The notes below the pieces were generated by a model. That model saw only the letters and a program-made list of their open reading frames with translations. It did no database searches and had not been told where the DNA came from. Below are positions 1,759-47,921 of a stretch of 47,921 nucleotides of DNA, one piece after another. Made by a program: the position numbers and the translations under genes. The stretch is taken from IMG/VR virus record IMGVR_UViG_3300021082_000007; one strand, 5' to 3'. The number at the start of each line of letters is the position of its first letter. Within the stretch, counting starts at the first letter, position 1. The DNA is from a virus.

Positions 1759-1989
1759 ATGTACCACATCTATTGCGACACAATCGAAGCGGACGTTATC
1801 ACGCCGGATTTTAATCACGCGGCGCGGACGTTTCGGCGCCTAATCCGCGATAATCCCGCGGACGTTGTCACATGCGACCGAATCGAGAATCTCGGCGCGG
1901 CCGATACCGCGGACGATATCCTTTCGGGAAACTTCGACGGGCGCCGCGTCCGCGTGATGCACTGTGACCCGGCCCTATACGGCTATTGA
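1759..1989 (+). CDS. Hypothetical protein (76 aa)
   Basis: ATG preceded by aggaaag; its TGA stop lies inside hairpin element copy 1. Confidence 0.65.
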   Translation: MYHIYCDTIEADVITPDFNHAARTFRRLIRDNPADVVTCDRIENLGAADTADDILSGNFDGRRVRVMHCDPALYGY

Positions 1990-2049
1990 TTGCAGTGCAT
2001 GCGGCGCCGAGCTCGGCGCCGCATGAGCGGCAATCACGCCGACAACAGA
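1986..2049 (+). repeat. Hairpin element copy 1 (conserved flanks, 28-bp perfect palindrome core)
   Basis: TTGATTGCAGTG-[CATGCGGCGCCGAGCTCGGCGCCGCATG]-AGCGGCAATCACGCCGACAACAGA. GATTGC and GCAATC can extend the stem across a 4x4 internal loop. Confidence 0.9.
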
Positions 2050-2069
2050 ACATGACAGGAATCAGAACA

Positions 2070-2906
2070 ATGCGCGTTAAGCTTCAATTCAAGGCTATGT
2101 TTTCTATTGATAGCCCAAAGGCAATCAAAGCGGCCAAATTCAACTATCTAAACGCTATCAACTATATGGCGCCGCACAAATCAGGCGATGGCGTCACTAA
2201 TCTGTGCTCGCATGCATCGCCCGCGTGCATATTGCTTTGCCTTGGTCGCGAAAGCGGACAAGCGGCCATGGTATCACACGCGACCGGAACCAATAAGGTG
2301 CGGCAATCCCGCGAACGCAAAGCACGCTATTTCATGACAGAACGCAACGCCTATTGCGTTGAGTTCCTAGTCCATGTTGCGCGTTCTATCCGCAAAGCAA
2401 AACGCAAGCGTATGGCGCTAGCGGTCCGCCCTAATGGCGCAACGGATATTGCATATGAGGGAATCCGTATCTTTGTATCGCCCGAGCTCGCCGCGTATCT
2501 GTCACAGATATCAGGCGAACAAATCACGCCAGGATTGCACACAATCTTTTCCGCTTTCCCCATGGTGCAATATGTCGATTACACAAAGAATCATCTTAGG
2601 TTTAATCGCCAATTGCCCGCTAACTATTCGCTGACATTTAGCCGCTCGGAAAACAATGAAGCGCAAGCTTTAGACTTGCTCGCCCGCGGTCATAATGTTG
2701 CGGTCATATTCGCGGGCGCCATGCCGCTGATGTGGAATGGATTCCATGTTATCGATGGCGACCAGCACGATTTGCGGCACCTTGATCCGCATGGCGTCGT
2801 TATTGGCTTGTCGCCAAAAGGCAACAAGGCGAAACGCGAGGGAGTCGCGTTGGGCTTTGTTGTCCCGCCGATCGCGGCGCCCGTTGAATATCAATTAGCG
2901 GCATGA
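2070..2906 (+). CDS. GP88-family-like protein (mycobacteriophage Gp88 type), function unknown
   Basis: NLCSHASPACILLCLGRESGQ ... VRQSRERKARYF ... LAVRPNGATDIAYE fits the Cys cluster and RLN.tSD pattern of Gp88-like proteins. The track start 1986 is a TTG inside the hairpin. ATG 2070 (agga 9 nt upstream) or ATG 2052 is more likely. Confidence 0.6.
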   Translation: MRVKLQFKAMFSIDSPKAIKAAKFNYLNAINYMAPHKSGDGVTNLCSHASPACILLCLGRESGQAAMVSHATGTNKVRQSRERKARYFMTERNAYCVEFLVHVARSIRKAKRKRMALAVRPNGATDIAYEGIRIFVSPELAAYLSQISGEQITPGLHTIFSAFPMVQYVDYTKNHLRFNRQLPANYSLTFSRSENNEAQALDLLARGHNVAVIFAGAMPLMWNGFHVIDGDQHDLRHLDPHGVVIGLSPKGNKAKREGVALGFVVPPIAAPVEYQLAA

Positions 2907-3010
2907 TCATGCTCAATATCAGCACACGCCGAATAGGCGGAATCCGCTTTATCAAAATCGGCCGCTTTTGCTTTAGCTTTTGCCTAACGCGAGCATACCG
3001 GCCGCTTTGA
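2903..3010 (+). CDS. Possible 35-aa ORF (MIMLNISTRRIGGIRFIKIGRFCFSFCLTRAYRPL)
   Basis: ATGA overlap with the upstream stop. Its TGA stop is the same TTGATTGC position of hairpin copy 2 that terminates gene 1759..1989 in copy 1. Below the track size cut-off. Confidence 0.25.
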   Translation: MIMLNISTRRIGGIRFIKIGRFCFSFCLTRAYRPL

Positions 3011-3068
3011 TTGCAGTGCATGCCGCGGGCGCGCCCGCGGCATGAGCGGCAATCACGCCGACAACAGA
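3007..3068 (+). repeat. Hairpin element copy 2 (same flanks, different 26-bp perfect palindrome core)
   Basis: TTGATTGCAGTG-[CATGCCGCGGGCGCGCCCGCGGCATG]-AGCGGCAATCACGCCGACAACAGA; ends 12 nt before the ATG at 3081. Confidence 0.9.
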
Positions 3069-3080
3069 GGCTAAAACAAA

Positions 3081-3380
3081 ATGGCATTATCAGAACAAGC
3101 TAAGCTTGCGTTAACCGGCGCCTATGCCACGCGAGGAAAAAACCGCGGGCAATTGCTCGCCCGTTGCCCGCGTAGTGAAACGCTAGCCGCGGCCGCGTGG
3201 CAAGGCGCCATGCTATCGTGCAATCCCTATCTGGCCAGCATTGGCGCATGCTTGTTTATGACCGCAGAGCAAAGGCTAATCCGTGATGAGGTATTGGCGC
3301 ACTTCGACGCCATGCCGCGGGAATATCGCATTATGGCGCAACGTGACCGCGAGGCATTGGAACGCCTAGGCGTATGGTGA
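3081..3380 (+). CDS. Hypothetical protein (99 aa)
   Basis: ATG with gagg upstream; followed by an intrinsic terminator. Confidence 0.7.
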   Translation: MALSEQAKLALTGAYATRGKNRGQLLARCPRSETLAAAAWQGAMLSCNPYLASIGACLFMTAEQRLIRDEVLAHFDAMPREYRIMAQRDREALERLGVW

Positions 3381-3395
3381 CAACCCCAACTATAG

Positions 3396-3427
3396 GCGCC
3401 CGCGGGACTAGTCCCGCGGGCGCTTTT
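3396..3427 (+). terminator. Rho-independent terminator
   Basis: gcgcccgcgggac-ta-gtcccgcgggcgc (13-bp GC arms) followed by tttt, 16 nt after the stop at 3380. Confidence 0.7.
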
Positions 3428-3431
3428 GCGC

Positions 3432-3700
3432 GTGCTGGACCGCGGCCGCGTGCTGGACCGTGTGCGGCCGCTCGCCCGCGTGCTGGACCGTGTGCGCGTG
3501 CTGGACCGCGGCCGCGTGCTGGACCGTGTGCGGCCGCTCGCCCGCGTGCTGGACCGTGTGCGCGTGCTGGACCGCGGCCACGTGCTGGACCGTGTGCGGC
3601 CGCTCGCCCGCGTGCTGGACCGTGTGCGGCCGCTCGCCCGCGTGCTGGACCGTGTGCGGCCGCTCGCCCGCGTGCTGGACCGCGGCCGCGTGCTGGACCG
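3432..3700. repeat. Hierarchical tandem array: 12 copies of core GTGCTGGACCG in 18-bp and 30-bp units
   Basis: Unit A is gtgctggaccgcggccgc, unit B is gtgctggaccgtgtgcggccgctcgcccgc, unit C is gtgctggaccgtgtgcgc. The order is A-B-C-A-B-C-A'-B-B-B-A-core, so the 66-bp ABC block occurs twice. GCGGCCGC recurs in most units. All six frames are open only because of the repeat. Confidence 0.95.
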
Positions 3701-3720
3701 CACGCGGGCGCCCGCGTGCG
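3699..3720. repeat. 22-bp perfect GC palindrome closing the array
   Basis: cgcacgcgggcgcccgcgtgcg equals its own reverse complement and overlaps the last GTGCTGGACCG core. Confidence 0.85.
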
Positions 3721-3863
3721 CGTGGCATATACACCTAAACCGTTGATTTTGCTAGCTTTTCAGCAGGATCCGGCGCGCGCCGAGCTGAAATGCGGCAGAA
3801 ATGCGGCAACTTGCAACCCACGCAGGGGTAAATTATCCCTTCTCAACAAATATGAGGATCGCC

Positions 3864-4241
3864 ATGAACAAAACCTATAAACTCTCTATAGATCGAGCCA
3901 TTGCCAGCCATAACCGTCATTCCGAAACGCCGATCGATACGATCGAGGCCAGGCAAATTCACCGGCTATTATCCGGCCGGCACAATTCCAGCCCAAGCCC
4001 GGAAACGCCCATGGAAAATCCCGCAGAGGGGCCAGGGGTCGATTCCATGACCAAGGAACGCTTCATCGCCGGCCTGGCCAGGCTCGGCTACAACATCAGC
4101 ACCGCGCATCGCTTGCTCGGCATGGGCCGGTCAACCATCTATCGCATGGCCGACGGCACCTCAGAAGTGCCAAGCGTGATCATGCGCCTGATGGACATGT
4201 ACGAGCGGTTCGGGATCCCGAACGAGCACCGCGGCGACTAG
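3864..4241 (+). CDS. Helix-turn-helix DNA-binding protein
   Basis: C-terminal NISTAHRLLGMGRSTIYRMADGTSEVP is a classic HTH. ATG 3864 is preceded by agga (5-nt spacer). The track start 3801 is less likely. Confidence 0.6.
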   Translation: MNKTYKLSIDRAIASHNRHSETPIDTIEARQIHRLLSGRHNSSPSPETPMENPAEGPGVDSMTKERFIAGLARLGYNISTAHRLLGMGRSTIYRMADGTSEVPSVIMRLMDMYERFGIPNEHRGD

Positions 4242-4596: not shown

Positions 4597-4764
4597 CAAA
4601 TCCCAAACCCGGAAAAGCGGAGGAATCCATACACATATAACATACATGTTTTTATATATACTGGTTAAAGGCATATATTGGGATTGTTGGGATTGGGTTT
4701 AGATAACTTATTGGTTTCATTACACTTTTATCCAAATCCCAAACAAATCCCAAACCGATCCCAG
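4597..4764. other. Candidate replication origin: AT-rich core flanked by TTGGGATT iterons
   Basis: About 4627-4735 is far more AT-rich than the rest of the genome (catacacatataacatacatgtttttatatatactgg...). TTGGGATTG occurs twice in tandem at 4678-4695. The complement AATCCCAA occurs at about 4599, 4735 and 4746, plus gatccca at about 4757. TTATCCAAA, one mismatch from the DnaA box TTATCCACA, is at about 4727. The region sits in a 562-bp gap between convergent genes. Confidence 0.35.
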
Positions 4765-4803
4765 TTCCAGATTAATCACCCTTTGTTCTCCTCCCGGCCG
4801 GCG

Positions 4804-6279
4804 CTAGTCGTCATCTGTAGTCCCAGAAACCCCAAATCCCGCTCGCTTCATCGCCGCCGCCATGTCTTTGGGATTGCCCGGTTCACCCGTTTCGAGCTGT
4901 TTTGCCGTAGCCTTGACCATCTCCGCGGCGCCCTCCTTGTTCCGTATCTTCGGCCCGGCATAGCCGATCCAGCAGTAAACCCGCTGCCGCGGCTGGCCCC
5001 CGACATCGACCCGAAGTTCGACCTCGCTCGGCGCCTCGGTAGTCACTCGCCGGATCTGGCTGCGGACCATACTGGCGAGATTGACGCCATCGCCACCATC
5101 CATGCGCGCCAATACGGCCGTCTGGATCTGCGGCCGGGTGAACAATCCACCACTGCCGACAATGCGCCGCACATCGGCGACCGCGTCATCGAACTCGCTG
5201 CGGCTCATCGCCTGCATCCGCGACTTGGTCGCAGTCTTCAGCGGCGCGTAGGGGTTGAACCCGGTGAGATCGCTGGATTCCAGCCACCGCCCCAGCTCGG
5301 CGATATTGGCCGGCTCTTCCATCCACTCATCCAGCGCCTGGGCCATCTCCGGCGTCATCTGCACGCCGTTGGCGATCGCGGTCACCCGTCGATCGTTGTC
5401 CGGGATCTGCAACGGATCAAAGTTGTTGGAGAAAATCAGGTAGCTGGTGAACGCGATCGCCTCAAATGCCTGCCGGTTCTTCATCGTAAAGGTGCGCAAT
5501 ACCGGCCGCGGATCGACAATCTCCTTGACCCGTTCATAGACGGCACGCTGCGCGGCCCATTTCCCGCTTTCGAGCGTGTCCTTGGATTCCGACACCACCA
5601 CCAGCGTGGCGTAAGCCGCCCAATCGGTATAATCCGCCTGGCCGGACTTGCCGGCGAACAGGTCGAAGTCGATCGGCTTGACGTAGCGCGGCCCCATCAA
5701 GCGCGAGAGTATTTCCTTCAGCTTGCCGCGGCCGGCGCCATACACCGGGCCGTCGATACCGGCTGCCACCATGATCACGGCAACGCCCGGAATGTGCGGG
5801 TTTTGGTATTTGTACGCCAGCCAATCATAGAACCACTCGCGCTCGGTTTGATCGGGTATCAAATGCTCCATGAACTTGATCCACAGATCCACGCTGCCGC
5901 CCGTCGCAGTGTGCTGCGGCCGCCGGTAGGTGTTCTTGAACAACTGCCCGTCCTCCCAATAGCAGGGAAACGGCATGTCCGGTCGCAGCCGCACGCCGGC
6001 GATCTCGTACCGATCGGCGTGCAACATCCAGGCTGCGAATGCGTGCTTGCGCTTCACACCACCCTGCGGCCCGGTTTCCTCTATCCACCACGGCATGTAC
6101 AGCGTCTGAAACGCCTTCAGCACCATCGTGCAGTAGTGCGATGGCTCATACAGCATCACCACTCGATCGGCGCGCGCATCATAGCCGTGCGTGTTTAATA
6201 ACCAGTTGATCTTGATTTCAATCGGATCTGTATCGTCTGGCTTGTCCGGCATCGGCGCTATGTCAGATCGCTTATTCAT
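4804..6279 (-). CDS. SF3 (D5/P4-type) primase-associated helicase / NTPase
   Basis: Walker A-like GPVYGAGRGKLKE and Walker B-like ATLVVVSES; 491 aa; immediately downstream of the AEP prim-pol gene. Confidence 0.7.
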   Translation of the reverse strand: MNKRSDIAPMPDKPDDTDPIEIKINWLLNTHGYDARADRVVMLYEPSHYCTMVLKAFQTLYMPWWIEETGPQGGVKRKHAFAAWMLHADRYEIAGVRLRPDMPFPCYWEDGQLFKNTYRRPQHTATGGSVDLWIKFMEHLIPDQTEREWFYDWLAYKYQNPHIPGVAVIMVAAGIDGPVYGAGRGKLKEILSRLMGPRYVKPIDFDLFAGKSGQADYTDWAAYATLVVVSESKDTLESGKWAAQRAVYERVKEIVDPRPVLRTFTMKNRQAFEAIAFTSYLIFSNNFDPLQIPDNDRRVTAIANGVQMTPEMAQALDEWMEEPANIAELGRWLESSDLTGFNPYAPLKTATKSRMQAMSRSEFDDAVADVRRIVGSGGLFTRPQIQTAVLARMDGGDGVNLASMVRSQIRRVTTEAPSEVELRVDVGGQPRQRVYCWIGYAGPKIRNKEGAAEMVKATAKQLETGEPGNPKDMAAAMKRAGFGVSGTTDDD

Positions 6280-6280
6280 C

Positions 6281-7255
6281 TCATTTCTCCCAAGGGTTCG
6301 TGTTATTGCGCCTCAACTCTTTCAGCTGCCGCATGAACTCAGGGTCTTCTGCCGGCGATAGCGACTGCCAACGGTGCGACACGCCGGTCTTGGTGTCCCA
6401 CAGGCACAGGCCGGCGCCGCCGGAGCGGTTGACCAGCACGCGATCGCGCGTTTTGGATTCCTTATCCCAGATGTTGGCGAAGGCTTTGATCCTGCTGACG
6501 CCGGCGCGCTTGTCGAGCTCGGCCAGTGTTAGCCGCTCGCCATCCGACAGCATGATGATATCGTCCGGCTTCAGATCGTAGACCCGCTCGCCTGGCATGT
6601 GCGTCTGCGTGGCGATGATCTGTTCGAGCCCAAGATCGACCATCACCTGTTCGCACTCGCCGATCATCGACGGAATATCGATCTCGGGAAACCACGGCAG
6701 GTCGGACAATTGCACGTCGAGGATCGATCTCCCGATGTAGCCATACGACCGGCCCTCGGAATGGAATCCATGCACCGCGACGTATCGCTTATCGTTGCCG
6801 GTGAAGTATTCGACCAGGTGCGGCTTGTCGCCGGCGCGCGGCTTGAACCGTGCCGTCCAATGCCGCTTGCGCACGGTGGCGCACTGCCCGATCAAGGCCA
6901 GCGTGGTCGACCCTGAAGTCCGCCGCAAGCAACCTGCCATGAACGCCGGCCAGCGTTTCGACAATGCGGCGAGCAGCGCCTCGCGCACTTGGGTAGTGCG
7001 CACATCCAGGTCGATGACAAAGGCCTTGCTGCCGTACATGCGCATGCCTGCGGCCTTGCCGTGCCACTGCGCGATCGCGGCGTCGTCATTCGGTTCGCTC
7101 GGCCAGCCCTTGAACGGCCCGTCCCGGCCCCTCAAGGGTATTACGTCGTAGCCGTTGTCCCGGATCCGGCGCCATATCTCGCGGTATTCGTTCACCGGCT
7201 TTGGCTCCAGCGGTATGGCTTGCGCTGGCTGGCCGGGATGGTAAAGCTTGGTCAT
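6281..7255 (-). CDS. Bifunctional primase-polymerase (archaeo-eukaryotic primase fold)
   Basis: YDVIPLRGRDGPFKGWP, AFVIDLDV and YVAVHGFH resemble the prim-pol N-terminal domain motifs. Confidence 0.65.
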   Translation of the reverse strand: MTKLYHPGQPAQAIPLEPKPVNEYREIWRRIRDNGYDVIPLRGRDGPFKGWPSEPNDDAAIAQWHGKAAGMRMYGSKAFVIDLDVRTTQVREALLAALSKRWPAFMAGCLRRTSGSTTLALIGQCATVRKRHWTARFKPRAGDKPHLVEYFTGNDKRYVAVHGFHSEGRSYGYIGRSILDVQLSDLPWFPEIDIPSMIGECEQVMVDLGLEQIIATQTHMPGERVYDLKPDDIIMLSDGERLTLAELDKRAGVSRIKAFANIWDKESKTRDRVLVNRSGGAGLCLWDTKTGVSHRWQSLSPAEDPEFMRQLKELRRNNTNPWEK

Positions 7256-40009: not shown

Positions 40010-41322
40010 GCGTATCCAGTGGCAACCCAAGTGCCATCAGCGACCTGAATCTGAAACTGGCGAAAGCGGGCGGTGAAAGCATTGTACGAGCTTGGGCCGC
40101 TTATCCCGGTGATACCGGCCCCGCCCCACGGCTCTTGCAGAGGACCATTGAACCCGCAATCCACGTCGCCGAGGTATACCCACCGCGCGTTGATCAGCGG
40201 GTTGCCGGGGTTGTTGCTGAAGTCGCGTGTCGTCCAGAACCTGTAGGCCACGCCTTCGCCGTGCGACCAGCCGCCCATGTAGAAGTTGCCGTCGGTATTC
40301 ATGCCGAAGTTGGCGCCGAAGTAGCCCTGGCAGTGGAAGGCGATAGTCGGATAGGGCGGGCCTTGCACCATGACGCTGGAGGGTGTCGCCGAGGCGAAGT
40401 AGACGCCATTGTTGTAGAAGGTGTGATTAACATTGCTGGGATGGGTAGATCCGCCGTTGGCGGCGAGCAAGCCGCTGAACGTGCCGGCGCCGGCAGTAAT
40501 GCCGCCGCCGACCCCCAGACCGCCGCTCGGCATAATGTAGTTGGTGCCGTCGAAGCCGACGTAGTGGGCCTGGTTGCTGCCGAGAAAGACGTAGCCGACG
40601 TTAGCGCCGCGGTAGCTGTAAGTATCGGCGGCGACCTTCAAGTCGCCGGTCATGGTATCGCCGGTCTTGCTGACCTTGCCGGCAAGGGCAGTGGCGTTGG
40701 TGCTATCGCCGGCGTCGACGTAGTCCTTGCGCACGGCATTGGCCGCAGCTGGCACGGTCGGCAGCGACAGATGTCCGGTCATGGTCCCGCCGGCCTTGGC
40801 GACCTTCTCGGCTTCCAGCTCGGCGATCGCGTCCTGCACGTTGGTGGCGGCGATCGCGCCGGTGGCGGTCGACGGAATCAAGGCCGCGTTCGGCGGCGGC
40901 GGGGTGGAGTCGTCAACGTACTTCCGGGTGGCCGCCTCTAGATCGGTGGATGGAGCGCCGGCCAGGACCAGCGGCCCGGTCATGGTGCCGCCGGCCTTGG
41001 GCAGGTAGCTGCTCAGATCGGTGGAATCGCCTGGGTCTCGGGTGGCGGCAAACCACTGCGCCGGATTGAAGGCGCCAGGCGAGATGTTGGCTTGCGCGAC
41101 ATAGAGCTTGCCGGCGTTGGCGACGAAGTCGCCGGCGGCGTATTGCGACCGCGTATCGAAGTAGCGCACCGCAATCAGGAACAGCGGCTGGCCGTCGGCG
41201 ACGTTGCCGACCGCCATCTGCCGGTTGGCGGTATTGACGTAGACCTCGCCCTTTTCCAGGGTCGGGGCTACAGCGGCAGGGCTGCCGTCGCGGCGATGGC
41301 GATAGTGCGAGGTCATGGTCAA
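40006..41322 (-). CDS. Tail fibre protein (paralogue A)
   Basis: The N-terminal ~95 aa are homologous to 44128..45867 (VNTANRQ.AVG, A.RYFD.R..YAAGD.V..AGKLY). It has repeated GGTMTG.L.L...AA.A..K.YVD fibre motifs. Confidence 0.8.
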   Translation of the reverse strand: MTMTSHYRHRRDGSPAAVAPTLEKGEVYVNTANRQMAVGNVADGQPLFLIAVRYFDTRSQYAAGDFVANAGKLYVAQANISPGAFNPAQWFAATRDPGDSTDLSSYLPKAGGTMTGPLVLAGAPSTDLEAATRKYVDDSTPPPPNAALIPSTATGAIAATNVQDAIAELEAEKVAKAGGTMTGHLSLPTVPAAANAVRKDYVDAGDSTNATALAGKVSKTGDTMTGDLKVAADTYSYRGANVGYVFLGSNQAHYVGFDGTNYIMPSGGLGVGGGITAGAGTFSGLLAANGGSTHPSNVNHTFYNNGVYFASATPSSVMVQGPPYPTIAFHCQGYFGANFGMNTDGNFYMGGWSHGEGVAYRFWTTRDFSNNPGNPLINARWVYLGDVDCGFNGPLQEPWGGAGITGISGPSSYNAFTARFRQFQIQVADGTWVATGYA

Positions 41323-43361
41323 TTGCCCGGTTGAGTTGGCGGGGTGAAGTTAGCAGTCCACAACGCCTTGCCCTTGGTAACACGGAACTCATCGATGTAG
41401 CCGGTCCAGTAGTTGGTGTTGTTGCCGATCGCGCCGATCACGAACGACCAGGTGCTGACGTAGATCGGAAACATGCCGTAGTCGTTCGGTCCCGCGTCTA
41501 GCACACCATCGAGCCACGATCTGAAAACGCCAGCCTGTCTGGTTACAGCCCAGTGGTGCCACGCATTGGGTGTGACATCGTGAACGCCAACCACGCCCTG
41601 GGTAACCCAATCGCTGCCGGTCTTACCAAACCAGCACTGCATACGGTTGTCGGTGCCCATTAGCGCGCCGTGCGATAGTTCTGTCAGGCTTGGATTACAT
41701 CGGCCAAACAGTCCGCGGTTAACACCGGGGGAGCCGGTATTGTAGAGCCAGCAGTCGATGGTGAAATCACTAGTGCCGAAGTTCAGACTGGCTGGAGCTG
41801 TCGGAACGTAGCAGAGCTGGCCGCCGCTGAAGAGTGCAGCCGCGGTGCCAAACTTCTTCTGTTGTATATCGATAACCGCGGTGGCCTTCTGTACTACCTG
41901 CCGCTCTCGCGAACTGTCGTTGAAATTGCCGTCGAAGTGCAGCAGCAGCACAGTCTTGTCGGGATTGAGGGGGAGCAGCTCGGCTGGTGGCGTGAACTCG
42001 GCGGTCCACAGTGCCTTGCCGATAACGAAGCGCACCTCGTCTATGTAGCCCTTGAAACGGTTCTCGCCGGCATCGCCCATGCCGCCTATCCGCAGCGGCC
42101 CGGTGTAGTCTTTAAACGATGTTCCGGCAGGTATCGCGAAACCAGACCGCAAAGTGCCGTTGACGTAGATCTGAACCGCAGTGCCATTGCGGACGACTGC
42201 AACGTGCGTCCAAGTATTGAACGGAACGGCAGCTCCAGGCGATCCGGTGAAATACACTTGCACGCCGGCGTTGTTCGCATCCGATACAACCGCGCCATCC
42301 GAATTGATGTACAACATCAGATGACGGTTGTTGTAATCGCCGGCACCATCCATCTGTGTGATGACCGCGTAGTTGTCGCCGGCAGCGGGATAGTCGCTAA
42401 TATAGACCCAGGCGTCGGCAGTGAAATCCTGGGTGCCTATGACCCAGTGTGCGTGATCCGGGTAGCTGACGTAGCATTGCGCCGCCCGGTTCAGGTACAG
42501 CGAAAAAGCGCCGCCGAATGGCGTCGGGGTAATCGATGAAATGGCCGCGCCGCCGGAAGCTGTGGCGAGGCCGCGCTTGTACTGCGACGAGTCCGCCAGG
42601 TTATCGAAGTGCATCAGCAGCACTGTGTTCAGGTCTGGTTCTGGTCCGTACTGTGCATTCGGTGGCGTGAAGTTAGCGGTCCACCTGGCAATGCCGTTGC
42701 TGACGCGGAACTCATCGATATGGCCGTACATGTAGGCGTAGCCGCCGGGATTAGTCCAAGCACCAAGGCACGGACCGTAGGTGCAGATATTGAAGACGCC
42801 GTTGCCGCCAACCGCCTGGGTGCCTTGCAATATGCCGTTCTGGAACGTGTAGAACGTGCCACCTTTGCGCACGATCGCGCGATGGCACCATGCACCGACC
42901 TGGCGATTTCCCATCGGCAGTGAAGCGGCCAAATTCCAAGTCGCTTGGTCGTTGGAGGCGTAAAAATACAGTGCGTCTGTTCCCCAGCCGACTAGCATGG
43001 GAACATACACTACACCCAGCGTGTCCCACTCGAATGAAGGACGAGCGACCGTGTTGTCGTGGCAGTATTCCCACCAATCGATCGTGAAGTCGTTGTCGGA
43101 CAGGTTAAATGAATTATCCAGGTTGACCGGCGAATAACACAAACCGTTCTGGGTATTAAGCGACAAAGACGTGGGGCCAAACTTGCCGCCGGCACTTATA
43201 ATCCCGTTTGATATGACAACCGGCCCGTTCTGCTTTCGTGAATAATCAATAGCGTATGCCGAGCCTTGCGGCCCGTCGAAGTGCATGAGCCACGTCACAT
43301 AGGCGTCGTTGTAGAGCGTGTCGTCGCTGGGAATACTGAAGCCGAGGCCGCGCTTGCTCAT
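41319..43361 (-). CDS. Triple LamG/concanavalin-like lectin-domain protein (receptor-binding candidate)
   Basis: Three repeats of the L(L)HFDG...DSS...FG.AA..F.G......(T)SDFTID.W pattern. ATG 43361 forms an ATGA overlap with the upstream stop (track start 43421 is a GTG). Confidence 0.65.
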   Translation of the reverse strand: MSKRGLGFSIPSDDTLYNDAYVTWLMHFDGPQGSAYAIDYSRKQNGPVVISNGIISAGGKFGPTSLSLNTQNGLCYSPVNLDNSFNLSDNDFTIDWWEYCHDNTVARPSFEWDTLGVVYVPMLVGWGTDALYFYASNDQATWNLAASLPMGNRQVGAWCHRAIVRKGGTFYTFQNGILQGTQAVGGNGVFNICTYGPCLGAWTNPGGYAYMYGHIDEFRVSNGIARWTANFTPPNAQYGPEPDLNTVLLMHFDNLADSSQYKRGLATASGGAAISSITPTPFGGAFSLYLNRAAQCYVSYPDHAHWVIGTQDFTADAWVYISDYPAAGDNYAVITQMDGAGDYNNRHLMLYINSDGAVVSDANNAGVQVYFTGSPGAAVPFNTWTHVAVVRNGTAVQIYVNGTLRSGFAIPAGTSFKDYTGPLRIGGMGDAGENRFKGYIDEVRFVIGKALWTAEFTPPAELLPLNPDKTVLLLHFDGNFNDSSRERQVVQKATAVIDIQQKKFGTAAALFSGGQLCYVPTAPASLNFGTSDFTIDCWLYNTGSPGVNRGLFGRCNPSLTELSHGALMGTDNRMQCWFGKTGSDWVTQGVVGVHDVTPNAWHHWAVTRQAGVFRSWLDGVLDAGPNDYGMFPIYVSTWSFVIGAIGNNTNYWTGYIDEFRVTKGKALWTANFTPPTQPGN

Positions 43362-44131
43362 GCGATCAGGCTCCCGCACAGCACCCAAACATCCGTACTG
43401 ATCTTCGACAACGTCGCGCACGAACCCATCAACGGCAGTTTGCGCTTGCTGTTTTCGGAATTGATGGTGACGCCGGCGCCAGGCACGATGGTCACCACAT
43501 TGGCGATCGATGAAGCAATATCGATCTGCGCACCAAAAGCGAACGGCACCGTGGCATTGGTCGGCACGGTGATGCTAACCGCATTGCTGGGACCGTTGAA
43601 GATCGACAGCAGCTTGCCGGCGTCAGACAGGATGAGTGTGTAAGCCGTAACGCCGATGTTATTGATCGCCCGCACGCCGGCATCGACGTACTGCTTGGTG
43701 GCAACGCCAAGCAGTTGCGTTGGGTCTTTGGCGACGTAGATTTCACTATTAGCCCGATTAATCTGTATGGCATTGGCAGCGCCAGACACGCCGTCGTCGT
43801 CGTAGCGCACCAGTGTAAAACTAGATCCGGTATTGCCGCCGCTTTCGGCATCACCTCCCAATCGCCACAGCCAACGCCGCTTACCGTTTCTGTTAAATCG
43901 GACATCAGCGGTATTGCCGCCGATAACATCGTTGAGGGCCAAGACCGGCGACGTTTTATCAATCGTCAGATCGCCGGTCATCGTGTCGCCAGCCTTCAGG
44001 ACGAACTGCGCAGCTGGCGCCACCGCAACCCAGGCGACGCCATTCCACTGATATTGCGGCATGCCGACGACTGCCGGGACCGGGTAGAGGTCATTGATGG
44101 CTGGCGAGGATGGAAAGTTGATGCCCATCAC
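43358..44131 (-). CDS. Tail fibre protein
   Basis: INFPSSPAINDLY ... YQWNGVAWV N-terminus, GDTMTGDLTI and ATKQYVD motifs. Confidence 0.7.
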   Translation of the reverse strand: MMGINFPSSPAINDLYPVPAVVGMPQYQWNGVAWVAVAPAAQFVLKAGDTMTGDLTIDKTSPVLALNDVIGGNTADVRFNRNGKRRWLWRLGGDAESGGNTGSSFTLVRYDDDGVSGAANAIQINRANSEIYVAKDPTQLLGVATKQYVDAGVRAINNIGVTAYTLILSDAGKLLSIFNGPSNAVSITVPTNATVPFAFGAQIDIASSIANVVTIVPGAGVTINSENSKRKLPLMGSCATLSKISTDVWVLCGSLIA

Positions 44132-45867
44132 AACCTCGCATCAGCTTTGTATGAATATTCATAATACGCCCCCGCTGTGTCAGCAGTCGGTACAGCCGAT
44201 ATCCATACGCCTTCTATTCCTGGGCTACTCGACGACGGTTGAGCTGAAGGAAAACCAGCCAAAGCTACAACAGCGTAAGACATTACTGGCACGGCGCGCA
44301 TATACGGACGAAACGGCGAAGATACATAGTAACTAGCACCGGCATTGGCGTAGCCACTCCAGAACAAAGTGTTACCCAAGTTGCCTTGGGTCGATCTTTG
44401 ATAATACCGCTGGCATGTCACCAACTCCTGATCGAACGGGCGTATGATCAGCGGTGACTGTGCAGCAGTCGGCGCAAACGCACCTGGAAGAATGGAAACG
44501 CCGCGCAGCATCATGAATTGCGCAGTGGCATTTAGACTGTTCACTTGTCCTGGGGCGGCGAGATAATTACCGGCCGCCCATACGTTGGCAGTCGGTGCCG
44601 TATAAGTCGGGCCGCACGCCGAGCAAAAAGCGATGACTATCCCGCTAGTATTCAATACGTCCCATTGTCCGCCGGTATCACCCGGTATGGTGACCGTCTT
44701 GTACTCTCGCGTACCGCCAACATTCTGGGTGTAAGTCGCGACGTAGCTGCGATTGTTAAGGCCATTGCGAATAGAGATGCTGTAGGTGCCGGGAACGGTA
44801 TGTTCGCTCCAGAACGCGATCGTAATTGGCGACGCACCTTGAAACCCCCAACCTAGCCGGGACATGCGATAGCCCTCGATGCTTTGCTGGATAATGCTGT
44901 AGTCACTCGTCACCAACGTAGCCTTGCCGGTGGCTGTGTTAGAATAAATCCTATGGCTGAAACCGAGAACCGGAGCAGTGTTATCCACGGTCGCTCGCGC
45001 ACCCGGTATTCCGTTAGCTGAGAAAAACCAACTATCGCCGGCATGGCCGGTAAGCAAAACCGTACCCGCCCCCTCCTGATTGACAGTGAAGCCGCCATTG
45101 ATCTGCATACCGTTGTAGGCCAGCGCGTCGAACGGCACCGCCGCAGCCATCGCCGATGCGATCGCACTGTCGACGTAGTCCTTACGCACGGCATTGGCGG
45201 CGGCTGGCGTTGTCGGCAACGACAAATGTCCAAACATAGTATCGCCGGCCCTGGCGACGAACGCGGTCGGATCGAAGCTCGGCACCGCAACCGCCTGAAC
45301 CCACTGAGCCGGGCCGACACCGTCGTTATAGCGGACGTAAAGCATCCCAGAATCACTCTCCCACCAAAGCTGGCCATCGGTTGGGCTTGCCGGCGGCGTG
45401 TCGCTAACCGTCAACGATGATTTATTGTTGATAGCGTTGGTCAGCACCAGATCCGCAGCGTCGACATAATCCCGGCGCACCGCATTGGCCGCAGCTGGGC
45501 CGGTCGGCAGAAACAAATGCCCCGACATGGTGTCGCCGGTCTTCAGCACCTTGGTCGGGTCGGTGGCGGTGCCGCCGCCGCCGGTGAACTCGGTCCACTG
45601 CGAGCCGTTAAACGCGCCAGGCGGGACCGCGGCATTGGCGGTGTAAAGCTTGCCGGCTTGCACCACCATATCGCCGGCGGCGTAGCTGGCGCGGGCGTCG
45701 AAGTAGCGGATCGCCAGCAACGGCAGTGGCACGCCGACGCTGCCGGCGTTGGCATCGCCGACCGCCAACTGCCGATTGGCAGTATTCACCGCCAATTCGC
45801 CGGGCTCGAGCGGATTGGGGAACGCATTGGCCGGGTTGGCACTGCGCCGGTGGCGGTATTGCTTCAT
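44128..45867 (-). CDS. Tail fibre protein (paralogue B)
   Basis: Shares the N-terminal domain with 40006..41322; two GDTM(S/F)GHL.LPT.PAAANAVR.DYVD repeats. Confidence 0.8.
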   Translation of the reverse strand: MKQYRHRRSANPANAFPNPLEPGELAVNTANRQLAVGDANAGSVGVPLPLLAIRYFDARASYAAGDMVVQAGKLYTANAAVPPGAFNGSQWTEFTGGGGTATDPTKVLKTGDTMSGHLFLPTGPAAANAVRRDYVDAADLVLTNAINNKSSLTVSDTPPASPTDGQLWWESDSGMLYVRYNDGVGPAQWVQAVAVPSFDPTAFVARAGDTMFGHLSLPTTPAAANAVRKDYVDSAIASAMAAAVPFDALAYNGMQINGGFTVNQEGAGTVLLTGHAGDSWFFSANGIPGARATVDNTAPVLGFSHRIYSNTATGKATLVTSDYSIIQQSIEGYRMSRLGWGFQGASPITIAFWSEHTVPGTYSISIRNGLNNRSYVATYTQNVGGTREYKTVTIPGDTGGQWDVLNTSGIVIAFCSACGPTYTAPTANVWAAGNYLAAPGQVNSLNATAQFMMLRGVSILPGAFAPTAAQSPLIIRPFDQELVTCQRYYQRSTQGNLGNTLFWSGYANAGASYYVSSPFRPYMRAVPVMSYAVVALAGFPSAQPSSSSPGIEGVWISAVPTADTAGAYYEYSYKADARL

Positions 45868-46550: not shown

Positions 46551-47921
46551 GGCGGCAGCACCACCGGCACATGCGGCCTAAACCAGATCGCCCAGAACCG
46601 GGAATCGACCGGCGGCGCCACTGTCATTGTCAAAGTGCTGCCGCTGGCGTTGAAGTCGACCGCGGGCTCCTGGATAACTCCATCCAGACTGACCATCAGC
46701 TGCGCGCCGATGCCGATCGAGGTCGCGACCGCCGGCGGACCCGCGGTCGGATCGATGTAAGTCAGCGTGAAGGTTTTCTTGGTGCCGTCCGGGATCAGCG
46801 GCTCGACTTTGAAGCAGTCCACCTTGGCAGAATTGATCTGATCGGGCGGGATCATCAGATCCCACTGAATGACCGCGCCGGCGCCGGGTGCTTCAACGAG
46901 CGTCATGGAATCGGCGTTGACGTCGACGGTGTAATCGAAGGTTGGCAGGATCCGCACGCCGTTGAGGTAAACGTCATGCCCCTCATTGCTAAACAGCGGC
47001 GCCTTGCCGTTGATATCGAGGCCGCTGAACGTCACCTGGCCGGCGGTGGCGATGTAGACGTAGCGGGCTCGGAATCCCGGCGCGACGGTGACGCCTGGCG
47101 GCTGCCAAGCCGTGCCGTCCCAGACCATGATCGAGTTCTTGGTGGTGTCATAATAGAAACTGCCGATCGCCAGCGGGTCCGGCACCTTCTCACCCGTATT
47201 CGGGTTGGTTTCGCCGGGAATCGGTTGATAAGACCACGGCCCGAGGTAGTAGAAACCGATATTGCCGACCAATTGCTGGCAATAAACCGCCCACCACTTG
47301 GCCGAAAACAACCCACCGAGGCCGCCCATGCCGGAAACCGGCTGGTAGAACAAACCATCGGGAAAAGCCGAGCTGTTGATGAAATCCAACGCCGTGGAAT
47401 TATCAATAACCGGGCCGCCGAGGTACTCGGCCCACTGCAAAGCCTCATCTTTGGCCGCAATGGCGTTGTCGGCTTGCGCATCCGAGTAGTTTGCCGAGTT
47501 CTTGGCGTCGATCGCGGCAGATTCTGCTCTGTCCGCGGCGTTTTCCGCGTCGGAGGCGGAATCCAGCGCGTTGACGTTGCCGTGTGAGATCGCGCTGAGC
47601 ATTTGCGCGGCGGAAATCGCCGCGGCCTCGGCATCACTGGCTCTGAGATCGGTATCGCGGCCGCTTTGGACGACGACGCTGATCGCGTCGGCGGTTTTAT
47701 CGGCCGCGGCGACGATGCGATGCTCGATATCGGTGACTTCTGCGCGAATGTGTTTTAGATCGAAGCTGAGTTGCTCCTGGCCGACGCTGTTGTTTGCTAT
47801 TTTTCCGTCATCGCGGCGGATATCGGCCAGCGCAGCCTGGGTGGATTCTATCGCGACGATGAGATTGGCGATCTGCGCATCGAGCAAGTCGGCCGGGACC
47901 GCGCCACGCGGGCGTTCGGAA
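46547..47921 (-). CDS. Tail-fibre/tail-associated structural protein; 5' end runs off the window (continues at 128..165 in the circle)
   Basis: First gene of the late block. N-terminal Ala-rich coiled coil, then two beta-rich segments (YVYIATAGQVTFSGLDING...VYLNGVRIL...DYTV ; FTLTYID...VSLDGVIQEP.VDF) reminiscent of T7-fibre N-terminal-type domains. Confidence 0.55.
   Translation of the reverse strand, partial: SERPRGAVPADLLDAQIANLIVAIESTQAALADIRRDDGKIANNSVGQEQLSFDLKHIRAEVTDIEHRIVAAADKTADAISVVVQSGRDTDLRASDAEAAAISAAQMLSAISHGNVNALDSASDAENAADRAESAAIDAKNSANYSDAQADNAIAAKDEALQWAEYLGGPVIDNSTALDFINSSAFPDGLFYQPVSGMGGLGGLFSAKWWAVYCQQLVGNIGFYYLGPWSYQPIPGETNPNTGEKVPDPLAIGSFYYDTTKNSIMVWDGTAWQPPGVTVAPGFRARYVYIATAGQVTFSGLDINGKAPLFSNEGHDVYLNGVRILPTFDYTVDVNADSMTLVEAPGAGAVIQWDLMIPPDQINSAKVDCFKVEPLIPDGTKKTFTLTYIDPTAGPPAVATSIGIGAQLMVSLDGVIQEPAVDFNASGSTLTMTVAPPVDSRFWAIWFRPHVPVVLPP
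47795..47921. repeat. Right copy of the exact 127-bp terminal duplication (= 1..127)
   Basis: Identical to bases 1-127. Confidence 0.95.

Follow-up and report, generated by a model that had tools for sequence, protein, structure and literature searches.

Introduction

The RNase III signals of T7 early mRNA (R0.3 to R1.3) lie between cistrons, occur several times per early transcript and form irregular hairpins of approximately two helical turns, in which an internal loop divides an upper from a lower stem and a single cut provides the upstream message with a 3′ hairpin that stabilises it (PMC3867540). In the present study we describe an element of similar architecture, in which a putative cut would have the same outcome, from two gene junctions (copies E1 and E2) of a 47,921-nt stretch of viral DNA (IMG/VR record IMGVR_UViG_3300021082_000007; hereafter, the window). 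An earlier reading of the window, made from the sequence without database searches (the original prediction), had likened these junctions to T7-type early transcripts. The analogy holds for architecture only, as the phage is unrelated to T7, carries baseplate genes and has no detectable RNA polymerase gene; the element further differs from the T7 signals in its invariant triad of short motifs (GCAG, CGGC and GCCG), its embedded stop codon and its competing helix. Genes for RNase III or a recombinase/integrase were likewise not detected among the 56 predicted proteins of the window, searched against Pfam (E ≤ 1e-3) and PHROGs (E ≤ 1e-5; top 25 of 46 matching families).

Attenuators and coupling switches, including the trp leader, the ermC leader and the MS2 coat-replicase junction, share with the present element a segment that has two possible partners, and a first segment that overlaps the end of an open reading frame (ORF), so that a ribosome could choose the fold. 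In contrast to these systems, the element has no terminator output and no predicted masking of the ribosome-binding site, and, unlike attenuators, it lies between full-length genes rather than after a leader peptide and is present in many copies.

Boundary sequences are known from the mosaic regions of phage genomes (bioRxiv 10.1101/2020.01.10.891226). Those of lambdoid and Arthrobacter cluster AU phages resemble the element in being conserved repeats that adjoin genes in a region prone to indels and replacements, whereas the element is a covarying, strand-specific, two-state hairpin that spans very divergent phages rather than a single cluster. In integron attC sites an unpaired bubble separates a conserved paired base from a variable paired tip; the sites are strand-specific, start at or within the stop codon of their cassette gene and occur in arrays of one-gene cassettes. 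The element matches this description, but its stem base is GATTGC ... GCAATC rather than RYYYAAC ... GTTRRRY, no integrase was detected in the genome, and it has conserved Shine-Dalgarno spacing and RNA-type loops. Repetitive extragenic palindromic (REP) sequences and bacterial interspersed mosaic elements (BIMEs) are GC-rich extragenic palindromes in operons that can stabilise upstream mRNA and that, if situated near a stop codon, can influence how the preceding gene is translated. REPs are, however, chromosomal and species-specific, and the present hairpin occurred in none of the 120 bacterial and archaeal pattern matches listed. Terminator, attC site and REP element were each rejected as identities for the element, which belongs instead to a large structured-RNA family unmatched in Rfam 15 and appears best read as a translation- or nuclease-gated intercistronic mRNA junction.

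Size and distribution of the family

A stem-base pattern search of IMG/VR returned 12 loci, and a looser pattern (GATTGCAG-N16-46-GGCAATCNNGCCG) returned 104 stretches; among its 95 distinct matches, approximately 75 have the hairpin. With a covariance model derived from 47 copies, 88 sources yielded 204 matches, and the family comprises at least 118 distinct sense-strand copies in ~64 IMG/VR loci belonging to uncultivated phages. Up to seven copies were found in one 7-kb locus and 11 in one 65-kb contig, all copies being co-oriented with the flanking genes, and a sub-family with an extra position, described below, adds a further 26. Sense copies in viral loci score 42 to 73 bits, as compared to a maximum of 36.7 bits, with one match per locus and no real element, among 100 bacterial and archaeal matches scored with the model. 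Rfam 15 gave no match to the whole window at gathering thresholds, and an E-value search with positions 1900–3150 gave best E-values of 2 to 10 to unrelated microRNA and small RNA models. Comparison of the consensus element with GenBank phages by BLAST produced chance-level matches only, the best of which (MT837809) was rejected as an element by the covariance model, and we found no description in the literature of the motif string or of such conserved intergenic hairpins.

Conserved anatomy and the strand that folds

Each copy is about 75 nt in length and has five parts (column numbers refer to alignment A2). Segment 1 (seg1), (U)GAUUGCAG, includes the UGA of the upstream gene and is followed by an upper hairpin of variable sequence, 9–12 bp long in 98 of 116 copies. 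Segment 2 (seg2), CGGCAAUC, can partner either seg1 or segment 3 (seg3), (U)GCCG, which begins two variable bases after it. An A/C-rich leader 3′ of seg3 leads to a Shine-Dalgarno site, and the start codon mostly lies 15–21 nt after seg3. Seven positions (G9, A11, G12, C67, G68, G69 and C70) are invariant in 118 of 118 copies; C10 is kept in 112, and G79, C80, C81 and G82 in 108–113.

In the long fold, seg1:seg2 and the upper stem together form an irregular helix of ~20 bp, interrupted by an A.G mismatch, which is fixed, and by a 2x2 loop; put geometrically, a lower stem of 7–8 bp and the upper stem flank a 4x4 loop with a central G-C pair. The original prediction had argued for conserved structure with divergent sequence, and this was strongly borne out across the family. 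In the upper stem 94% of cells are paired, compared to 71% in column shuffles and 28–47% when the partner strand is slid, with 188 double-sided changes against 59 in shuffles. Compensatory changes, which that prediction had proposed to seek in relatives by way of the flanks, were found in the lower stem as well, where T8:A71 has become C:G seven times and the variants GAATGC/GCATTC, AATTGC/GCAATT and GCTTGC/GCAAGC are each compensated.

Several observations bear on which strand folds. The upper stem contains 92 G.U but only 24 A.C mismatches, and 27 of 47 tetraloops belong to the UNCG (9), GNRA (8) or other YNMG (10) types, for which the base odds are ~9%. The model scores the sense strand ~30 bits above the antisense strand. 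Together with the uniform co-orientation with flanking genes, these data indicate that the transcript, or at least the coding strand, folds, as had been proposed for an RNA hairpin, and they argue against a symmetric site in double-stranded DNA.

Perfect palindromes in the core, in contrast, did not hold up as a family feature: they are peculiar to the window clade. Most relatives have ordinary asymmetric loops; judged by the refutation test that the original prediction had set for itself, pairing, and not the palindrome, is therefore selected. Self-complementary 4-nt centres are nonetheless over-represented (11 of 47 tetraloops versus ~3 expected). DNA-level templated correction or palindrome-tip instability may turn over the distal stem rapidly, which would explain the perfect palindromes of the window, as an RNA does not need them. 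Both window cores have an A-B-A form in which A and B are each palindromic (centres at 2010–2013 and 3030–3033); read with the flanking C/G these are GGCGCC-GAGCTC-GGCGCC and CCGCGG-GCGC-CCGCGG.

A second helix competes with the lower stem

The right flank had been assigned to the long stem through its GCAATC. This part of the original prediction stood, but it had missed that the same flank holds an alternative hairpin. Seg2 and seg3 read CGGCA-AUCN-UGCCG, itself a hairpin (helix B) of 4–6 bp located just upstream of the Shine-Dalgarno site, and helix B and the lower stem are mutually exclusive because seg2 is common to both. When the sequence 3′ of the internal loop is folded by itself, helix B is the minimum-energy structure in 97 of 118 copies compared to 17 of 590 shuffles, a result largely due to the conserved sequence. 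In two weak model matches (L045 and L048) the outer lower stem has been lost and CGGCA-N3-UGCCG kept.

Further evidence for pairing comes from the extra position mentioned above. Locus L087, likewise found through weak model matches, has two elements with one additional nucleotide in all three segments, and in each the extra base of seg2 pairs with that of seg1 or seg3 (U/A/U in one copy, A/U/A in the other). A pattern in which this position was left free (GATTGC-N-AG ... CG-N-GCAATC-NN-GC-N-CG) recovered 33 stretches, 30 of them distinct and 26 with the hairpin. In these 26 copies the extra seg2:seg3 pair is always Watson-Crick (A-U 13, U-A 9, C-G 3, G-C 1) and the extra seg1:seg2 pair is Watson-Crick in 15 and A.A in 11, which indicates that both helices are selected, helix B the more strictly. 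As in a three-segment RNA switch, two exclusive helices thus share one segment, with triple co-insertions in L087, and both are maintained through compensatory changes. Dual pairing may also account for the invariant triad: each base of seg2 has two partners, so that any change would need two simultaneous compensations.

Two other readings of the seg2–seg3 region were tried and rejected. It is not a double-stranded DNA operator of the form CGGCA-N4-TGCCG, as its halves change together and keep pairing rather than sequence, nor was there support for masking of the ribosome-binding site by seg3 in the long form, the predicted Shine-Dalgarno/AUG accessibility being 0.65 versus 0.67.

The two copies in the window

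The window represents the complete genome of a phage. Its two ends (1–127 and 47795–47921) carry a direct repeat of 127 bp with 100% identity, which reflects either true terminal repeats or an overlap from circular assembly. As originally described, its two hairpins have identical flanks and different, perfectly palindromic cores: positions 1986–2049 read TTGATTGCAGTG-CATGC-GGCGCCGAGCTCGGCGCC-GCATG-AGCGGCAATCACGCCGACAACAGA, and positions 3007–3068 differ in the core (CGCGGGCGCGCCCGCG, 16 nt, in place of the 18 nt of GGCGCCGAGCTCGGCGCC). The window contains exactly two instances of the 29-nt right part, where 100 dinucleotide shuffles lead one to expect none, and two of the left 15-mer, with no mismatches. 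RNAfold predicts the proposed bipartite form for both, consisting of a 7-bp stem (TGATTGC/GCAATCA), an internal loop with a G-C and a U.G pair, and a further 11–12 bp. A T-run is absent 3′ of both, in agreement with the proposal that they are not classic terminators. The covariance model found no third copy in the window, the next sense-type match reaching only 15 bits, so that E1 and E2 are the sole copies in this genome. The upper hairpin of E2 is, apart from its tip, near-identical to an element of relatives L051 and L108. The parts of both copies are as follows.

1984–2047, plus strand: E1, whole covariance-model match (68 bits, versus 39 bits on the reverse strand; RNAfold −45.4 kcal/mol, z = −7.2)
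1987–1995, plus strand: E1 seg1 TGATTGCAG, which supplies the lower stem with its 5′ strand and also includes the invariant A.G mismatch and the G-C pair
1998–2025, plus strand: E1 upper hairpin CATGC-GGCGCCGAGCTCGGCGCC-GCATG, 12 bp, centre AGCU
2028–2041, plus strand: E1 seg2 (CGGCAATC) and seg3 (GCCG); seg2 pairs within the lower stem, as its 3′ strand, or with seg3 in the alternative hairpin B
2042–2072, plus strand: E1 leader ACAACAGA..., Shine-Dalgarno AGGAA (2057–2061) and ATG (2070–2072) of the GP88-family gene
3005–3066, plus strand: E2, whole covariance-model match (72 bits, versus 37 bits on the reverse strand; RNAfold −39.5 kcal/mol, z = −3.9)
3008–3016, plus strand: E2 seg1 TGATTGCAG
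3019–3044, plus strand: E2 upper hairpin CATGC-CGCGGGCGCGCCCGCG-GCATG, 11 bp, centre GCGC
3047–3060, plus strand: E2 seg2 and seg3 (CGGCAATCACGCCG), forming the alternative hairpin B
3061–3380, plus strand: E2 leader, Shine-Dalgarno AGAGG (3066–3070), ATG (3081) and the 99-codon downstream gene

Stop codons and flanking genes

The embedded stop codon and the adjoining ribosome-binding site, both noted originally for the window copies, are general properties of the family, in which a stop stands at the 5′ edge of the element and a ribosome-binding site and ATG lie past its 3′ edge. In 78 of 114 copies, the TGA made up of the first two bases of GATTGC and the base preceding them terminates an ORF of 40 codons or more, and a stop codon lies no more than 9 nt from this register in 102 of 114; ~10% of copies have no upstream ORF end nearby. 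Junctions lacking the element in the same gene arrays are tightly coupled, with overlaps or gaps of 1–15 nt. In the window, three reading frames adjoin the copies.

1759–1989, plus strand: putative upstream ORF of 76 codons, whose TGA (1987–1989) is the first three bases of the E1 lower stem
2070–2906, plus strand: GP88-family gene (PF17338, phrog_1617), the cassette cargo between E1 and E2
2903–3010, plus strand: putative ORF of 35 codons, beginning at an ATGA overlap with the GP88 stop and ending at a TGA (3008–3010) within E2

The first of these has no homologue in the related loci and the third has no family match. No function for GP88 was found in the Protein Data Bank (PDB) or the literature.

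A variation on the leader was seen in the sub-family represented by L253 (seven copies) and L230, which are parts of the same IMG/VR contig, 3300047160_001700. Here the leader 3′ of seg3 has an extra small hairpin, GCCUAGGAGGGC, that puts the Shine-Dalgarno sequence AGGAGG in or at its loop ahead of nearly every gene.

Proposed mechanism

We are confident that the element acts at the RNA level as a two-state intercistronic structure. We also lean, with more reserve, towards a fuller reading in which each copy acts in cis, as a two-state junction within an early polycistronic transcript of the phage, through both processing and the ribosome. The long form would be the resting state, a hairpin with roles in processing and stability. 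In size and in its internal loop it would be suited to cleavage of one strand by an endonuclease specific for double strands, such as the RNase III of the host; this enzyme requires ~11 bp from target site to distal box and is limited to one strand by internal loops, the remaining 3′ hairpin stabilising the upstream RNA (PMC3867540). RNase III cleavage is accordingly plausible in the limited sense that it is compatible with the predicted geometry.

Two triggers, which are mutually compatible, could release seg2 from the long form. In one, a ribosome terminating at the embedded UGA would cover or unwind seg1 and the internal loop (~11 nt), freeing seg2 to form helix B next to the following Shine-Dalgarno site; this would explain the fixed register of the stop codon. 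In the other, seg2 would be released by cleavage immediately 5′ of C67, in the 3′ strand of the internal loop, which would account for the presence of this loop, for the stem length and for the exact point at which helix B starts. Cleavage there would leave the upper hairpin as the 3′ end of the upstream message, directly past its stop codon, and hairpin B as the exact 5′ end of the downstream message. Hairpins at a 5′ terminus are known stabilisers of RNA. Expression of adjacent gene cassettes may in this way be insulated or coordinated by a junction of standard form.

A number of points weigh against this reading. It rests on sequence and predicted folds, and the ORFs upstream of both window copies are short and without homology support. 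RNase III has no known need for the invariant GCAG, CGGC and GCCG, the invariance of which could reflect a sequence-specific protein; no protein family occurs in more than 26 of the 78 element-bearing loci. Whether seg3 is free or sequestered barely alters the predicted accessibility of the ribosome-binding site. Lastly, G.T-tolerant hairpins form in single-stranded DNA too, and the palindrome-rich hairpin centres point to DNA-level palindrome dynamics acting on the same sequences.

More tentatively, the element may represent a new class of phage riboregulator, a translation-sensing toggle in which the ribosome terminating at UGA would flip a nuclease-sensitive long helix to a short hairpin in the 5′ untranslated region. 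The ribosome would then be handed to the next cistron across the base of the hairpin, as a bacterial form of shunting, or translated messages would be protected from RNase III. The standardised junction could double as homology through which unrelated phages trade expression-ready single-gene cassettes.

An alternative reading is translational coupling with no nuclease at all. The terminating ribosome would melt seg1, hairpin B would form, and the ribosome, retained at the foot of the upper hairpin and within a few nucleotides of the Shine-Dalgarno site, would re-initiate on the next gene in a bacterial analogue of hairpin shunting or termination-reinitiation. The fixed stop-codon register, the strict selection on helix B, the start codon 15–21 nt after seg3 and the tight coupling at element-free junctions of the same operons are all in keeping with such a switch, as is the length of seg1 plus internal loop, which approximates the mRNA covered by a ribosome downstream of its A site. 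We nevertheless regard a pure coupling switch as rather unlikely, since Shine-Dalgarno/AUG accessibility is predicted to be the same in both states, the copies with no nearby upstream ORF end do not fit, and it leaves the narrow range of upper-stem lengths and the conserved A.G mismatch unexplained.

Cassette exchange at the elements

In two cases, comparison of related loci shows elements to be sites at which cassettes have been inserted, lost or replaced. Loci L051 and L108 are 88–97% identical over aligned blocks flanking their elements and differ by a 294-bp unit, made up of one 73-codon gene and one element with its leader, present in one of them. The junctions of this indel fall inside elements and the leader is duplicated. 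L108 also has two copies of the element that differ solely in the stem tip.

The second case is the window itself. Throughout its clade (L011, L028, L051, L057/L084, L092 and L108) an element directly follows the stop of a large syntenic gene. This gene is a clear homologue of the window GP88 in six of the loci, and that of L028 groups with a second GP88-like cluster. The syntenic GP88 proteins of the relatives are 74–96% identical to each other but just 31–35% identical to that of the window, whereas the flanking 185-aa and 99-aa proteins are 51–57% and 72–79% identical to their counterparts. A distant GP88 allele between conserved flanking proteins indicates that the segment between E1 and E2 has been replaced, in keeping with the boundary sequences of mosaic phage regions. 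This stretch, containing the GP88-family gene and the 35-codon ORF, has a GC content of 52% compared to ~60% in its surroundings.

Both cases would be expected if the element were primarily a DNA-level boundary or linker repeat, or an attC-like single-strand recombination site for one-gene cassettes, with the RNA fold being incidental. The enrichment of palindromic hairpin centres and the precedent of boundary sequences point the same way, and the conserved base, unpaired bubble and variable tip recall a folded attC. Recombination alone, however, hardly explains RNA-type tetraloops, a covarying second helix beside the Shine-Dalgarno site or fixed spacing to the start codon, and a single crossover cannot yield two copies that differ in the core alone. 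Given also that the cores do not fit RYYYAAC/GTTRRRY and that no integrase or recombinase was detected, we consider a primarily DNA-level role unlikely.

Regulatory proteins and transcription signals

The absolute invariance of GCAG and CGGC, and near invariance of GCCG, amid otherwise saturated sequences is also what an operator for a sequence-specific RNA-binding regulator might show. Such a protein, of phage or host origin, would recognise the internal loop or hairpin B and switch early genes together, much as a translational repressor acts at an operator adjoining the ribosome-binding site; the element lies immediately upstream of the Shine-Dalgarno site, and several copies precede early genes. 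We think this improbable, because the sequence of helix B is free to change if pairing is kept, indicating that it is read as structure, and because two alternative partners for each seg2 base can explain the invariance. Furthermore, no candidate protein co-occurs with the element within ~5 kb. No protein is common to all element-bearing loci, the most widespread neighbour being a small helix-turn-helix (HTH) family (26 of the 78 loci), with GP88-like proteins in 18.

A transcription terminator or attenuator lacking a U-tract is very improbable, despite the very stable GC-rich hairpin directly after a stop codon and a three-segment layout as in attenuators, given that GGCAAUCNNGCCGA and an A/C-rich leader, never a U-run, follow in all copies, that termination at each of up to seven copies in one co-directional array would silence the downstream genes, and that a conventional palindrome with TTTT is present elsewhere in the same operon (3396–3427). 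Scans for sigma-70 promoters and terminators around the copies gave nothing over shuffle level at the elements, and a promoter for a phage RNA polymerase was ruled out, as no such polymerase gene was detected.

Other features of the genome

The plus strand of the window carries early and replication genes, including a DUF2800 exonuclease, a family A DNA polymerase and an SNF2 helicase, and the minus strand carries structural genes for the terminase, major head and baseplate proteins. Megablast of the first 6 kb gave no match among GenBank phages, and the polymerase protein is at most 37% identical to those of the closest GenBank phage isolates, so that the phage has no annotated relative.

The small HTH family has a core of ~65 aa and is encoded 0.4–2 kb downstream of the elements. 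Its window member lies at 3801–4241, and other members occur in loci including L002, L007, L009, L022, L034, L047, L053, L060, L063, L073, L077, L086, L094, L095 and L101. Between the 99-codon gene and the HTH gene of the window, a perfect 28-nt palindrome (3396–3423) followed by TTTT precedes a run of tandem repeats (3427–3701) based on GCGTGCTGGACCG and made up of 18-, 30- and 66-nt units. Possible roles are an origin, or an iteron or operator array; a 168-codon ORF that crosses the repeats is probably spurious. A second tandem repeat, 3.7 exact copies of the 19-nt unit TACCATGCTTCAAAGCAAA, is located at 804–874 in the early region, downstream of the 185-codon gene.

Two minus-strand genes (4804–7255) stand within the plus-strand early/replication block. 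They encode proteins of 491 aa (weak DUF5906 match) and 324 aa, each ~71% identical to proteins in L051, and an overlapping plus-strand ORF (4678–6198) is probably no gene. Several diverged internal repeats of 75–130 nt were found at 40600–45600 on the minus strand, within and between large genes, one of which has a Laminin_G_3 domain; they resemble the repeated domains of tail-fibre-like proteins.

Significance

If our reading is correct, many uncultivated phages assemble their early operons from one standard junction part in which a stop codon, a hairpin for mRNA processing or stability, a conformational switch and a defined 5′ leader for the next gene are combined. The known cis-regulatory RNAs would gain a new family, abundant and well supported by covariation, with a clear two-state design. 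Because the element is short and defined to the single nucleotide it is directly testable, and it might serve as a natural intercistronic insulator. For the phages themselves, such a junction would provide a molecular basis for linker sequences in modular exchange and for the context-independent expression of acquired genes.

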